A model generated the notes under the pieces. That model made no database searches, had not been told where the DNA came from, and saw nothing but the letters and a program-made list of their open reading frames with translations. From IMG/VR virus record IMGVR_UViG_2671180770_000025: a stretch of DNA of 41,019 nucleotides; one strand, given 5' to 3'. Source of the DNA: a virus. Taxonomy: Duplodnaviria > Heunggongvirae > Uroviricota > Caudoviricetes. Shown here in pieces: positions 1-6,246 of the stretch (the first letter of the stretch is position 1; each line of letters begins with the position of its first letter). The position numbers and the translations under genes are program-made.

Positions 1-1164
1 TTACACATCATTAGTACCTTCCTTATTTTTTGACTGGGACAAATTTGGGACCGATGGGTTTAGGATCGAGTCTATTTGCCGTGCGTGTTCGGTAAGGTGA
101 TTAGGTGCAAGGTGAGCATATCGACGAACCATTTCGATAGACTCCCAGCCTCCCATTTCCTGTAACACTGACAACGGGACTCCGGCTTGAACCAGCCAAC
201 TTGCCCAGGTGTGTCTCAAGTCGTGAAATCTGAAATCATCAATACCAGCCCGTCTCAGCGCCGCTTTCCAGGCTGTGTTTGCGTCATACCGCATCTTCCT
301 GACTGTTGGCGCTTTCGTTCCGTCTGGTTTGGTACAGCTTTCCTTGTACACAAATACCCAACGGTGATGATTCCCGATTTGTTTTTTCAATACGCGACAT
401 GCAGTATCATTCAGCGCAACGCCAATTGCGCGGTTTGATTTACTCTCTTCCGGGTTTATCCATGCCACCCGGCGCTGCATATCTATTTGTTGCCATTCAA
501 GGTTGATGATGTTCGAGCGTCTTAGGCCTGTTGCCAGTGCAAATTCAACAACAGACTTTAATGGCTCCGGACATTCATCAATCAGCCTTTGTGCTTCATG
601 GGGCTCCAGCCAGCGGATCCGTTTATTCTTTGGTTGGGGCACTTTAATAATTGGTGCCTTATCCAGCATTTTCCATTCACGCTCTGCGGCTCTTAGTAGG
701 GCCTTTATAAATGAAAGATGCGTAGCCTTCGTTGCAACGGACGCTGGTTTTGGCGTGTATTCTGGAACAGGTTTCCCTTTTTTTCTGCATGCTTCTGCCC
801 TGAGTTTCCAGTTTTCCTCATGACGCCGGTTCGTCATTTTCTGCATTGCTGAATAAATTTTTGATTCAGTAATGTCTCTTAGTTGCATTCCTGCGAAATG
901 TTGAAGCCAGAATCCGATCCGGCTTTTGTCATCGTCCAGTGATTTTTTATGTGCTTTCTCTTCAAGCCACCTGACACACGCTTCCTCGAACGTTATATCA
1001 GGTATTTCACCAAGTTTGCTGACCCGCCATGCTTCAGCCTTTAGCTTGTCATGGAGTTCTGTCGCCTGCCTTTTGTCCTTTGTTCCAAGAGACTGTTTAA
1101 ATCTTTTACCGTTCGGCAATGTGAAACTGGCGTACCATATTTCACCTCTGCGGAAGAGTGACAT
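1..1164 (-). CDS. int: Tyrosine integrase, P22 Int-like (387 aa)
   Basis: C-terminal tyrosine-recombinase motif [39 protein letters not shown]; N-terminus [14 protein letters not shown] resembles P22 Int as recalled; SD GAGGAAAG upstream of ATG at 1164. Confidence 0.9.
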
Positions 1165-2712: not shown

Positions 2713-3537
2713 TCAGGCGGTGAAAGTACCAATAAAGGTTTCTACTTTGCTGTCCTTGAATTTCTCAACAAGCAGATCACGAAATTCGTTAGCCATTTCT
2801 TCCTGCACCGCCTCCAGCTGAATAATGCGCAGAACCAGTACAGGACGATCGCCAGTGATAATACTGAGGCGTAATTTAAACGGACGTTCTTTCAGACCTT
2901 CAAACGGAACGCATTTAAATTCAAATGCCACTGGCATAATGTCTTTGGTCTTCGCTTCGACAGACTCCATCAGGGAGCGTTTGCCGCTGAAGTCATTATC
3001 TTCAAAATCAGCGGTCTGGTTTGCTTCAATCGTGATTTTACGGACAGCCGCAGCCGCTTTTGTTGCCTGAATAGCGTCACCATTAGCATCAAAGCCCACA
3101 AGATAGTCGGCCCAGTCTTCAATCCATTCTGCTAGTGACTTCTGGGAGTTACGCTCGCCGTTAACAGACAACAGAGCAGAGAACGGTGCTGTCTTTTTCA
3201 GTTTGAGTGTGGCGGTGTTATCTGCGTGACCTGGTTCATCAATAGTACCCAGGTTAAGCACACTGACGGCACGCATATTATCAGCATCGATAAAGCAGCG
3301 GGTGCCTTCATCTGCAAGATCTTTAGAATAACGGGTAAAGTCATCGATGCTGGCAGTGGAAAGCGCACCACGGAAACGGAAGCGATTTAAATTAAATTTT
3401 TCCAGATCATGAATGCGGAAATTCTCAGGCAATGCCACAGCATCGGCACCAATCTTACTGATAATTTCATTAACACCCTGAGCAGAAATAAGGGCATGGA
3501 TTTGATTAATTGCGGTTGCGTCTAAGTTCTGAGACAT
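2713..3537 (-). CDS. yfdQ: DUF2303-family prophage protein (YfdQ-like), 274 aa
   Basis: 274-aa ORF; length and position match CPS-53 YfdQ; DUF2303 assignment from recall. Confidence 0.55.
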
Positions 3538-3602: not shown

Positions 3603-3965
3603 TTAACGACCTGCTGCGCGGAGTTTTCCGTCAGGTTCACCGGCAAGAGTCAGTAACTGTCCCTGGTCTTCCTGCAGAATAGTCAGGCGACCACCGCGAT
3701 TGACATACATCGGCGTTTCGGTGGTGTCTTCTTCGGAAATTTTCCCGCGGTTAGTCGGGCGAACATATGAGAGTTTGTGTTTGATTTTCACTCGGTTCTC
3801 ATCAAACGGTTCGATTTCCAGGTTGAGCGAGACCTTACCTTTGGTTTTCGTGTTCATCACACCGGAAGCGACTTCACTGAGAACTGCGCCGATTTTGGTT
3901 TCAAATACGCCGCCGTCCAGCTCCCCGATAAATGCCTGCACATCAGTACTGCGTTCGCTAGCCAT
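3603..3965 (-). CDS. yfdP: Early-left hypothetical protein, 120 aa (YfdP-like by size and position)
   Basis: Real start placed at internal ATG 3965 (MASERSTDVQ); the track ORF N-terminal extension runs through GC-rich non-coding sequence. Confidence 0.45.
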   Translation of the reverse strand: MASERSTDVQAFIGELDGGVFETKIGAVLSEVASGVMNTKTKGKVSLNLEIEPFDENRVKIKHKLSYVRPTNRGKISEEDTTETPMYVNRGGRLTILQEDQGQLLTLAGEPDGKLRAAGR

Positions 3966-4433
3966 TTTGCTGCTCCTCATCATATCGACCCTGCAAGGTC
4001 GGTTAGTTTCTCCACAAAACAGAGAAGAACACCTGCGGTGACTGCCGCCCGGATGGATTGGGTTATGAGCCCGTCGTCCGGTGATGCTCTTCTCTGTTTT
4101 GTAAAAAGGACGGTACCAGCCGGAAGCAAGGGTACAAGCTGGTACCGCCAAGACTACACACAGCATAAAGTTGTGGTGCCGGGTGCCTCCCGGTGCCTGG
4201 CGAAGGTTGCACACCAGGCGGGTGGGTATCCACAGAAGGTCGACTGTCAGCCTCAACCTTAACCCGCGTGCGCTGAGCCGCATTCACCACAACGCTAAGG
4301 ATTCTCTCTGGTTGAAAATACTTAGCTGTTATGTGCCTGCTTTTAGCCACATCAGGCGAGGTGGACCTAGTTATTCCCCAACAACAAGGATTCGGTTAAT
4401 CTGGTTATCCCCAACAACGCAAAAGGAAAAGAA

Positions 4434-4868
4434 ATGTCCGGTAATATCTATACGCTGTACAAATCCCACTGTGAAAATGTTGGAAAGTATCGGGGCATTG
4501 AAATCAGTGGGGTAGTGTCATCAGTCGAAATAAGCAAAGTTGAATCAAGGGCAACATTACTTACTCTTTTGGACCTTGTCTTACATGAGCACCGGAAGAA
4601 ATTCGGCACTCCCTATAATCAGTTGAATGGGAAAAAGGCTCTGGTTCACCTTATTCTGATGAAGCATCACTGGATGCCAAAACAGATTAATGAGATGAAA
4701 TTTGATGAACTTCTTCTTTCAATTCAGGATGAACTCACACTTGATAAAATAAGCGTAACCGCCCAGAAATTTTTAGATTATCGAGACTGGAGATCACAAA
4801 TTCATCACTTTGATGATTTTGACGAAAATGAATGGGATCCTAATTTGTCTGCACAATATCTAAAGTAA
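4434..4868 (+). CDS. Hypothetical 144-aa protein, AT-rich moron on the strand opposite the PL operon
   Basis: SD AAGGAA 8 nt upstream of ATG 4434; AT-rich versus flanks; direct repeats upstream; no recognisable domain. Confidence 0.5.
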   Translation: MSGNIYTLYKSHCENVGKYRGIEISGVVSSVEISKVESRATLLTLLDLVLHEHRKKFGTPYNQLNGKKALVHLILMKHHWMPKQINEMKFDELLLSIQDELTLDKISVTAQKFLDYRDWRSQIHHFDDFDENEWDPNLSAQYLK

Positions 4869-5046
4869 CATCCTGTGATAAAACCGTGATTTCCTGATCC
4901 AGTTTTTTTAAGGAGTCTATTGTTTCCTGTCGATAAGACAGCACTTCACGAAGCTGGTTTATAGCTGCCAGCTTCTTTGTCATCCACTCATAAATTTCCT
5001 CATCTGTGTAGCCAGGCGCGACGATTTTGGGTTCTGTTTTGTGCAT
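4840..5046 (-). CDS. Hypothetical 68-aa protein, first gene downstream of PL (N position but not N-like)
   Basis: ATG at 5046 with strong SD GAGGAG 8 nt upstream; no Arg-rich motif; 3' end overlaps the convergent gene 4434..4868 by 29 nt. Confidence 0.5.
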   Translation of the reverse strand: MHKTEPKIVAPGYTDEEIYEWMTKKLAAINQLREVLSYRQETIDSLKKLDQEITVLSQDVTLDIVQTN

Positions 5047-5105
5047 TTCACATCTCCTCAAGTTATCAGTTACTTGTTGATGGGGACCAGATTGTTAAAG
5101 AGCTA

Positions 5106-5128
5106 AGCGTCCTGTAGGGCGCTTTTTT
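5106..5128 (+). terminator. Intrinsic terminator on the plus strand (7-bp stem, tgta loop, T6)
   Basis: agcgtcc-tgta-gggcgct followed by tttttt. Confidence 0.5.
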
Positions 5129-5204
5129 GTTGCTAACGAATCATCCTGGACTTCATATGCCCCAGGCGGCTACTTCGTGGGCGTCCTGCCTGTTCGTTGT
5201 TTCT

Positions 5205-5241
5205 CTTGGGTACATTATGTATCTCAAAGGTACATTGTCAA
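5205..5241 (-). promoter_or_regulatory. PL-like leftward promoter with overlapping operator half-sites
   Basis: Minus strand reads TTGACA, 17-nt spacer, ATAATG; GGTACA half-sites at 5209..5214 and 5229..5234 match the OR palindrome half-site. Confidence 0.55.
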
Positions 5242-5244
5242 GTA

Positions 5245-5268
5245 TAAAAAAACCTGCCGAAGCAGGTT
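5245..5268 (-). terminator. Intrinsic terminator downstream of the cI stop
   Basis: Perfect 7-bp stem aacctgc/gcaggtt with 4-nt loop, followed by a U-run on the minus strand (A6 at 5245..5250 on plus). Confidence 0.6.
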
Positions 5269-5280
5269 CATAAACATTGA

Positions 5281-5955
5281 TTAGGCTTTGATTTTGTATC
5301 TTCTTGGTTTTCCTGAGAAAATCACTGTACCAATTATAGAGCAATTACCGTTGATCTTAATGTAAGGCTCAGGCCAGTTTGGGTTTAACGCTTTGAGATA
5401 ACGCTGTGTCCCATCTTCTATTAACCTTTTGAAGGTGGTTTCACCTGTATCGTGCATCAATGCAATAACGTCGTCACCGTGGCAGGCAGGTACTTCAGGA
5501 TCGACAAAAATCATGTCTCCCGGGCGGTACTCATCAATCATTGAATCACCTATCACCCGCAAGATATAAGTCATTTCCCCACAGGGTACAGGGCAGGGAT
5601 ACGTTTCTGCTGTGCTCAAATCAACCTCAGAATATCCAACTTCTTTCCATGCTCCGGCCTGTACCCATGATATGACAGGGACTAATGTGATTTGTTTATT
5701 AGTGATTGAAACATCAGGTTTTTTTGTGATGTTCGTTGTCTGGTGTTCTTGATCGAGCCATCCGACAGGTAGGTCGAAACATTTTTCGATGTGTCGTGCC
5801 ATGCTGTCACCGATATTTTTAGTAGCACCATCTCCCATAAACCTGCTGGTCTGGGTTGGCTCGCGATCAATCATAGTGGCAAAGGAAGAATTCCCGCCAA
5901 CACCATCTCTCAGTTTTCTGGCGTTAGACCGCCGGATGTCATGGATTGTTTTCAT
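5281..5955 (-). CDS. cI: CI-type prophage repressor with C-terminal S24 (LexA-like) autopeptidase domain
   Basis: C-terminal S24 signature (VIGDSM, TFKRL; LKALNPNWPEPYIKINGNCSIIG resembles the P22 C2 / lambda CI C-terminus); divergent from cro across an operator palindrome. Confidence 0.8.
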   Translation of the reverse strand: MKTIHDIRRSNARKLRDGVGGNSSFATMIDREPTQTSRFMGDGATKNIGDSMARHIEKCFDLPVGWLDQEHQTTNITKKPDVSITNKQITLVPVISWVQAGAWKEVGYSEVDLSTAETYPCPVPCGEMTYILRVIGDSMIDEYRPGDMIFVDPEVPACHGDDVIALMHDTGETTFKRLIEDGTQRYLKALNPNWPEPYIKINGNCSIIGTVIFSGKPRRYKIKA

Positions 5956-6045: not shown

Positions 6046-6246
6046 ATGAAAGCGTATTGGGACTCTTTAACCAAAGAACAGCAGGGCGAGTTGGCCGGAA
6101 AAGTTGGCTCAACACCTGGCTACTTACGGCTGGTTTTCAATGGCTATAAAAAAGCCAGTTTTGTGCTGGCTAAAAAACTTGAGCAATGCACGTCAGGTGC
6201 AATTACGAAATCTGACTTAAGACCGGATATCTATCCGAAAGATTAG
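6046..6246 (+). CDS. cro: Cro-like HTH regulator (66 aa)
   Basis: Small basic HTH protein immediately right of OR, divergent from cI; SD GGAGGT 9 nt upstream. Confidence 0.7.
   Translation: MKAYWDSLTKEQQGELAGKVGSTPGYLRLVFNGYKKASFVLAKKLEQCTSGAITKSDLRPDIYPKD

Follow-up and report, generated by a model that had tools for sequence, protein, structure and literature searches.

We analysed the virus record IMGVR_UViG_2671180770_000025 (41,019 nt, hereafter the window), a lambdoid prophage of the Shigella SfIV/SfV/SfII type, and found that two genes lying to the left of its cI-type repressor gene are a conserved, mobile, convergent cassette, which is the strongest result of the analysis. The plus-strand gene encodes a protein of 144 amino acids (aa) and the minus-strand gene one of 68 aa. 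Both represent real, conserved protein families that are already catalogued as hypothetical, and we found no description of their pairing, mobility or convergent layout in the literature searched. We tentatively propose that the larger product acts in the lysogen and the smaller one antagonizes it during lytic growth. The early-left transcript, which carries the small gene, begins with a structured leader RNA that we consider a candidate antiterminator.

A conserved convergent gene pair

The cassette is composed of two open reading frames (ORFs) and their overlap:

4434–4868, plus strand: 144-aa gene, ECs1072 family (NCBIfam NF033230, PHROG 5286)
4840–5046, minus strand: 68-aa partner gene (PHROG 1744), with an ATG start and a GAGGAG Shine-Dalgarno sequence
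4840–4868, both strands: 29-nt overlap of the 3' ends of the two genes

The mechanical ORF call for the 68-aa gene begins upstream, at a TTG codon at 5061. RefSeq annotates the same two coding sequences, and the identical 144-aa protein carries there the ECs1072 family name; good Shine-Dalgarno sequences precede both ORFs. An initial annotation of this DNA had described the two ORFs, the 29-nt overlap, two direct repeats and a hairpin with a T-run, and we found every one of these features at its coordinates. Of its interpretation, the accessory, lysogen-oriented character stands and an exclusion function is plausible, whereas the analogy with rexAB does not hold; the repeats are not specific to one gene (see below).

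An exhaustive profile search resolved the ECs1072 family into 76 representative clusters, nearly all of 145–155 aa, and the family reaches Salmonella, Serratia and P2-like prophages. A profile-based locus search with a closer alignment returned only three genome loci, and the genomic contexts of 13 distant members of the large family were inspected. A convergent partner ORF was called in about 10 of these 13 contexts, with the partner motif confirmed in eight, and in most cases the small ORF points towards the large gene, with their 3' ends overlapping. The pair recurs tail-to-tail, at 35–52% identity, in lambdoid early-left operons, in a P2-like early operon and in the interval that separates Q from the lysis genes. 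In all contexts inspected, the large gene is antisense to the phage operon around it, whereas the small gene has the direction of that operon. The individual occurrences are as follows:

E. albertii: pair, large protein with 72% identity
Metagenome contig: pair with 52% identity, partner of 66 aa, overlap of 44 nt
Locus L018: pair with 37% identity, partner of 72 aa, adjoining an S24 repressor
Loci L019 and L020: pairs with partners of 70 aa
Serratia quinivorans: pair with 35% identity, between a Q-like gene and holin/lysozyme/Rz
Locus L021: pair between NinG and holin, in the late region
Loci L023 and L024: pairs in a P2-like cox...A early operon
Locus L038: two partner-like genes in tandem
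One further contig: pair

The partners are homologous in BLASTP comparisons (window against L018, E = 4e-16; L018 against L023, E = 3e-7) and share the motif EPxxxxxxY(S/T)(D/E)EE(I/L)xxW, after which comes a long helix. Homologous pairs overlap at their 3' ends by 35–86 nt, as compared with 29 nt in the window, and the identities of the large and small proteins to those of the window are, respectively, 52% and 52% in L012, and 37% and 39% in L018.

The tandem of L038 (2733–3570, minus strand) consists of a 73-aa partner-like gene and a second one that forms the C-terminal half of an ORF called as 190 aa long, which suggests a duplication of the small partner. In L018, a tRNA gene (2759–2832, minus strand) lies immediately upstream of the large-family gene. 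A GC-rich, apparently structured non-coding stretch separates the ECs1072-family gene from the next genes in L010 (about 4590–4840), a different prophage, and gave no Rfam match at E ≤ 0.01.

The two protein families

The 144-aa protein matches NF033230, the 'ECs1072 family phage-associated protein', with 157.8 bits (cutoff 70) over residues 4–144, and phrog_5286 with an E-value of 1.5e-90; neither family has an assigned function. Positions L50, R54, L64, G66, A69, H72 and W134 are conserved in an alignment of 47 sequences, and the AF2 model obtained with this alignment is an all-alpha, soluble helical bundle (pLDDT 94.7, pTM 0.89). Fold searches with this model returned no known relative, and the protein has no Pfam, PDB-sequence or PADLOC family match, nor was any such match consistent among the 47 family members. 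Two specific candidates were rejected. A reading of G[RK]xALxH as an Rx4H, HEPN-like motif is at odds with the Arg position, which is not conserved, and no HEPN fold was matched; for the HD/HDOD phosphohydrolase superfamily, we found no HD-type fold with an H...HD...D metal-binding motif.

The 68-aa protein aligns over its full length (residues 1–68 of 68) with PHROG 1744 (E = 6e-35), which also lacks an assigned function. It is acidic, with an isoelectric point (pI) of 4.8, and contains the N-terminal motif EPxxxxxxY(S/T)(D/E)EE(I/L)xxW followed by a predicted coiled coil or long helix; sequence searches against Pfam, NCBIfam, PADLOC and PDB sequences returned generic coiled coils only. As first noted from the DNA, the protein lacks an Arg-rich motif, containing a single Arg in its first 30 residues. 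Its identity as a lambda N-type antiterminator was rejected, because there is neither an arginine-rich motif (ARM) nor a match to any N family in Pfam or PHROG. Likewise, none of the early-operon ORFs in the window carries an ARM.

Cassette boundaries and flanking repeats

The cassette is of the moron type and occupies a variable slot immediately downstream of PL, the early-left promoter, in agreement with the accessory nature first ascribed to it. The backbone up to 4364 is common to SfV, SfII, mEp460 and, more divergently, ST64B and 118970_sal3; the block at 3900–4364 is present in SfV and mEp460, and the match in SfII begins at 3989. In all five phages the backbone resumes from 5135/5137, with other or no cargo in between. 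PhiR29 carries an unrelated plus-strand gene in the slot and shares with the window positions 3900–4418, including both direct repeats, and 5087–5300, including a boxA-like sequence and a hairpin, which here follows the cargo stop by about 40 nt. The following elements surround the genes in the window:

4370–4385, plus strand: direct repeat copy 1, GTTATTCCCCAACAAC, then AAGGA
4404–4418, plus strand: direct repeat copy 2, GTTATCCCCAACAAC, immediately before the Shine-Dalgarno sequence (AAGGA) of the 144-aa gene
5074–5093, minus strand: inverted repeat copy in the 5' leader of the small gene, its right arm reading TTGTTGATGGGGACCAGATT on the plus strand
5105–5130, plus strand: intrinsic terminator (hairpin at 5105–5124) with an 8-bp stem, a TGTA loop and a T-run

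Because PhiR29 keeps both the repeats and the hairpin around an unrelated gene, these elements behave as a promoter/terminator shell for plus-strand cargo and not as sites specific to the 144-aa gene. In Salmonella phage 118970_sal3 (2314–3033 of locus L008), an unrelated 138-aa plus-strand gene overlaps by 38 nt, at its 3' end, with two small minus-strand genes; the slot may favour convergent designs.

The exact core common to both repeats is TCCCCAACAAC, at 4375–4385 and 4408–4418. With up to one mismatch allowed, the 41-kb window contains three occurrences of this core, where chance alone would give 0.85 on average, and all three copies are within the cassette; the third one, absent from the initial annotation, is inverted and lies at 5076–5086. 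An imperfect 20-nt inverted repeat thereby brackets both genes, matching 4398–4417, which includes repeat copy 2, with 5074–5093. Its arms vary concordantly in PhiR29, L010 and L012, and the predicted arm-arm duplex is more stable than shuffled sequences in the window and in PhiR29 (z of about −3 to −4), for this shell type only. The inverted arms could serve for pairing between the 5' and 3' ends of the RNA, as an RNase III site or as a recombination boundary. Long-range complementarity between the region upstream of the large gene and that beyond the small gene is significant in the window and in L007, and weaker in L011, L012 and L010; it is absent in L017–L023 and was rejected as a universal feature of the pair.

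In distant family members, a single extended −10 box (TGgTATCTT) precedes the ATG by 27–33 nt, and after the box come a CA-rich leader and then AAGGA. The corresponding region of the window reads as two tandem degenerate units, GTTAT(T)CCCCAACAAC, each followed by AAGGA. As judged from the sequence, the direct repeats are probably a tandem duplication of a promoter/5' untranslated region unit and not a dedicated protein-binding array. A hairpin upstream of the large gene (GCCTG-13 nt-CAGGC; 4335–4357, plus strand) overlaps the putative −35 region of the distant members, and the equivalent stems of L019 and L023 are compensatory (GCCGG...CCGGC).

The terminator hairpin has a predicted stability of −11.5 kcal/mol as plus-strand RNA versus −7.5 as minus-strand RNA, with a U-run on the plus strand only, and the homologous hairpins of L011 and L012 are likewise more stable as plus-strand RNA. 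This asymmetry arises because pairs that are G.U in the plus-strand RNA correspond to C.A mismatches in the minus-strand RNA. The sense of the hairpin in three loci thus bears out the plus-strand terminator of the initial annotation. The terminator is located 237 nt downstream of the stop codon of the large gene, a point already beyond the small gene's start codon, and a plus-strand transcript ending there is therefore antisense to the whole of the small gene.

A structured leader RNA and a boxA-like sequence

Between the repressor gene and the cassette, the minus strand contains the following elements:

5250–5269, minus strand: terminator of the cI transcript, also annotated there in the SfV record
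5214–5241, minus strand: PL-like promoter, TTGACA-16-CATAAT (11/12), directly after the cI terminator
5129–5204, minus strand: structured leader RNA of 76 nt at the 5' end of the PL transcript, with an outer helix around two hairpins
5092–5103, minus strand: boxA-like sequence GCTCTTTAACAA, which the PL transcript carries downstream of the leader RNA and ahead of the small gene

Since the PL-like promoter follows the cI terminator, the early-left operon opens with the 68-aa ORF. On both sides of cI there are GGTACA operator-like repeats (5209, 5229, 5984 and 6034), the first two overlapping PL, and the assignment of the small gene to the 'N position' is thus supported. Conversely, the pair had also been placed in the position of rexAB, from which it differs in being located beyond PL, separated from cI by both the cI terminator and PL.

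The leader element is conserved in 51 phage records, including SfV, SfII, mEp460, ST64B, ZF40, YeP1 and SPN3UB, from hosts of the genera Escherichia, Shigella, Salmonella, Citrobacter, Klebsiella, Pantoea, Yersinia, Pectobacterium and Aeromonas, as well as in T5-like Providencia phages; a pattern scan of viral contigs yielded one locus. In the temperate phages checked, it is always found 100–170 nt after the repressor gene and on the same strand, whereas the next gene varies. In an alignment of 16 sequences, 92.4% of the cells were paired, versus 68.6% in shuffled alignments and at most 43% with slid partners, and 10 of the 14 pairs showed changes on both sides. The hairpin loops, AGGACGCCCACGAAGUA and GGCRUAYGAA, are invariant. 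The covariance model gave a hit of 93 bits, and each genome has a single copy. Rfam does not contain the element, and we found no similarity to the put loci of HK022 and HK639 with either the covariance model or BLAST. By position and architecture, it is a candidate for a new put-like antiterminator RNA. In Providencia phage vB_PreS_PR1 (L030, about 1180–1290), the leader RNA lies in the terminal repeat, the pre-early region of T5-like phages, and is followed after about 10 nt by CGCTCTTTAAAAA, a lambda-like boxA.

GCTCTTTAACAA matches the core of the rrn-type boxA exactly. It is the sole exact match to this core in the window and directly abuts the 5' arm of the inverted repeat flanking the cassette; L007, L011 and L012 have it conserved, and L010 has a variant of it. 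Another boxA-like sequence, ACTCTTTAACCA, with two mismatches and within chance expectation, occurs at the start of cro on the PR transcript (6062–6073, plus strand). The covariation-supported leader RNA, together with the rrn-type boxA, probably explains the missing N. Because both elements are present, a substitute for N would be unnecessary, and the 68-aa protein is unlikely to be one.

Prophage context

The segment at 3960–5290 shows 98% identity to phage SfIV and at least 99.6% identity to the closest E. coli chromosomes, and at least 80% of the segment is present in about 406 of 5,426 complete E. coli genomes. The neighbouring genes and elements are:

1–1164, minus strand: int, left arm
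To 3968, minus strand: xis, then homologs of yfdR, yfdQ and yfdP, left arm, with a non-coding stretch between yfdP and the cassette
4100–4323, minus strand: STnc100/PasD-like small RNA region of the PL operon (Rfam RF02076), part of the backbone and left neighbour of the cassette
5281–5955, minus strand: cI-type repressor gene (LexA/S24 family, Peptidase_S24, ymfK)
6046–6246, plus strand: cro (YdaS-like), to the right of cI, as is a cII/YmfL-like gene

A scan of the whole window at Rfam gathering thresholds gave no match; the region at 4100–4323 matches the full-length STnc100 model with 43.4 bits (gathering score 47; E = 3e-8). STnc100 and PasD are reported to be diverged relatives (bioRxiv 10.64898/2026.05.13.724894). 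Protein ORFs are annotated over this region in SfIV and phage Kati, and a frameshifted pseudogene in RefSeq; these are probably misannotations. STnc100 as a constant companion of the gene pair was rejected.

Proposed function and alternative explanations

By its orientation, the 144-aa gene seems suited to the lysogen: it runs against the phage operon in all contexts inspected, and ECs1072 was detected in uninduced cultures of O157 Sakai (PMC2241611). Prophage defence with cognate self-immunity has precedents in BstA/aba (PMC8585504) and TerI/anti-TerI (bioRxiv 10.1101/2025.02.27.640495). From the architecture, the Sakai detection and these two precedents only, we infer a model in which a lysogen-phase effector of 144 aa and a lytic-phase antagonist of 68 aa are switched by convergent transcription; we put it forward tentatively, as a possibility well short of an even chance. 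In the lysogen, cI would shut PL, and a weak promoter located in the repeat region and belonging to the 144-aa gene would drive its expression; the resulting mRNA would run antisense across the small gene and end at the terminator. The large protein would be an effector harming incoming phages or their replication, by exclusion or abortive infection, as suggested by position and architecture; no known family for either activity was matched. Upon induction, the leader RNA, the boxA or both would render transcription from PL processive. The 68-aa protein would then be the first of the early products, and the convergent transcription, together with pairing of the antisense RNAs, would silence the large gene. 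Small, acidic and with a coiled coil, the 68-aa protein would be the cognate antagonist or self-immunity factor, protecting the lytic growth of the prophage itself.

Several observations weigh against this model. Neither the pair nor the 47 family members show similarity, in sequence or fold, to a known defence, exclusion or toxin protein, and in PADLOC-DB 2.0 neither protein matches a component of a described anti-phage system. The evidence for expression of ECs1072 in Sakai is a single microarray line. We detected no consensus sigma-70 promoter on the plus strand for the large gene in the window, and the repeat region, being common to the unrelated cargo of PhiR29, is uninformative on the 144-aa gene. 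Additionally, L010 and L037 contain no recognisable partner, L022 has only a non-matching convergent ORF, and the partner copy of E. albertii has a frameshifted C-terminus.

The two genes might instead have independent functions under shared regulation, the small one as an early lytic factor (for host takeover, or a division inhibitor like Kil or cIII) and the large one as a conversion or fitness factor, with the overlap only enforcing exclusive expression. We consider this unlikely, albeit worth retaining. The small gene comes first after PL, a place that lambdoid phages use for early peptides modulating the host; the large gene has the architecture of a moron and no defence homology, and a few members of its family lack a partner. 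However, the partner accompanies the large gene into late-gene and P2-type early-operon contexts, in which an early-left role would not be conserved, and the two families co-diverge, as seen from their parallel identities in L012 and L018.

A toxin-antitoxin-like module for addiction or stress, acting as a protein pair or through type I-like antisense RNAs, would stabilize the prophage with no phage exclusion. The small, mobile and conserved two-gene unit fits such a module, as do the acidic nature of both products, the small and helical partner, the convergent 3' overlap kept at 29–86 nt and the plus-strand mRNA antisense to the entire small gene. We nevertheless find this explanation improbable, because no toxin-antitoxin family was matched in Pfam, NCBIfam or PADLOC, and because the genes are not co-transcribed, so that joint production in the lysogen would require a further, unseen promoter for the small gene. 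Moreover, neither protein is membrane-like, as type I toxins are, and the large one is modelled as a soluble helical bundle. A type II toxin-antitoxin operon was rejected outright, since the genes are convergent and not co-transcribed and no superfamily of this type was matched.

It is very unlikely that the 68-aa protein is an unconventional N substitute, or a regulator of early transcription or of the lysis-lysogeny decision, with the large gene as its antisense-encoded modulator. Its gene does occupy the N position directly after a boxA-like sequence, and there is no N-like ORF bearing an ARM in the window. On the other hand, the leader RNA occurs in phages with different or no first genes, and antitermination would thus be independent of the 68-aa protein, which is acidic and has no RNA-binding motif; the pair is also found in late regions and in P2-like phages. 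Finally, that one or both ORFs are non-coding and only RNA is conserved is hardly credible: the region is rich in RNA features, and the relatives of the 68-aa protein from a word-index search are nearly clonal (at least 91% identity), but divergent protein-level homologs of both ORFs keep their motifs and reading frames, both ORFs have good Shine-Dalgarno sequences, and the fold of the large protein is predicted with high confidence.

Returning to the model of a lysogen effector with a lytic antagonist, its widest form would be a so far unrecognised, widely mobile system for defence and self-immunity, or of toxin and antagonist, with a convergent on/off layout and an effector of novel fold, accompanied by a new class of put-like processive leader RNA in many N-less temperate phages of Enterobacterales and in T5-like Providencia phages; we regard this combined proposal as doubtful. 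If true, the effector-antagonist model would extend prophage defence with self-immunity by a further protein family and by a new regulatory layout, mutual exclusion via convergent overlapping genes, and two widespread families now listed as 'hypothetical' would gain a function. The issue to which the leader RNA relates is a long-standing one, namely how early transcription becomes processive in lambdoid phages without N.

Comparison with known systems

In lambda, transcription from PRM covers both cI and rexAB, the latter situated between cI and OL/PL. Like rexAB, the present pair is an accessory unit of two genes near cI; it differs in that its genes are convergent and lie beyond PL, with cI separately terminated, and have no homology to rexAB. 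The sieB gene of P22 and lambda is co-directional with PL, and escape from its action takes place via the Esc protein, an internal sieB product, and the sas antisense RNA. Similarly, the 144-aa gene is an accessory gene of the early-left region proposed to act in the lysogen against other phages, and self-protection by a second product and an antisense RNA of the same locus is what we propose here. Unlike sieB and Esc, the pair consists of two separate convergent genes, with no match in sequence or family.

BstA adjoins the repressor locus. Its combination with aba, as well as TerI/anti-TerI, joins a prophage defence protein with a cognate self-immunity element for the phage's own lytic cycle, an arrangement that we propose for the present cassette from its architecture. 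However, the self-immunity element of BstA is DNA, and TerI/anti-TerI achieves self-immunity with proteins of other families; there is no homology to either system (PADLOC and Pfam were negative), and the convergent overlapping layout is specific to the cassette described here. The type I toxin-antitoxin loci txpA/RatA and bsrG/SR4 of B. subtilis prophages are transcribed convergently with a 3' overlap. They share with our pair the organization of convergent prophage units overlapping at their 3' ends, each RNA being antisense to the other, whereas here both strands encode conserved proteins and there is no small hydrophobic toxin.

The put elements of HK022 and HK639, of about 65–75 nt and with two stem-loops immediately downstream of PL, also occur in lambdoid phages without N (PMC9378689; annotation of the HK639 record). 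The present leader RNA differs from them in having an enclosing third helix and one copy per genome, and shows no similarity in sequence or by covariance model. In rRNA leaders, boxA is found after a hairpin and is followed by the 5' arm of a long-range inverted repeat. The PL transcript reproduces this order, with the exact boxA core, a hairpin before it and the 5' arm of an inverted repeat directly after it, albeit in a phage context and with the preceding hairpin better formed on the opposite strand.

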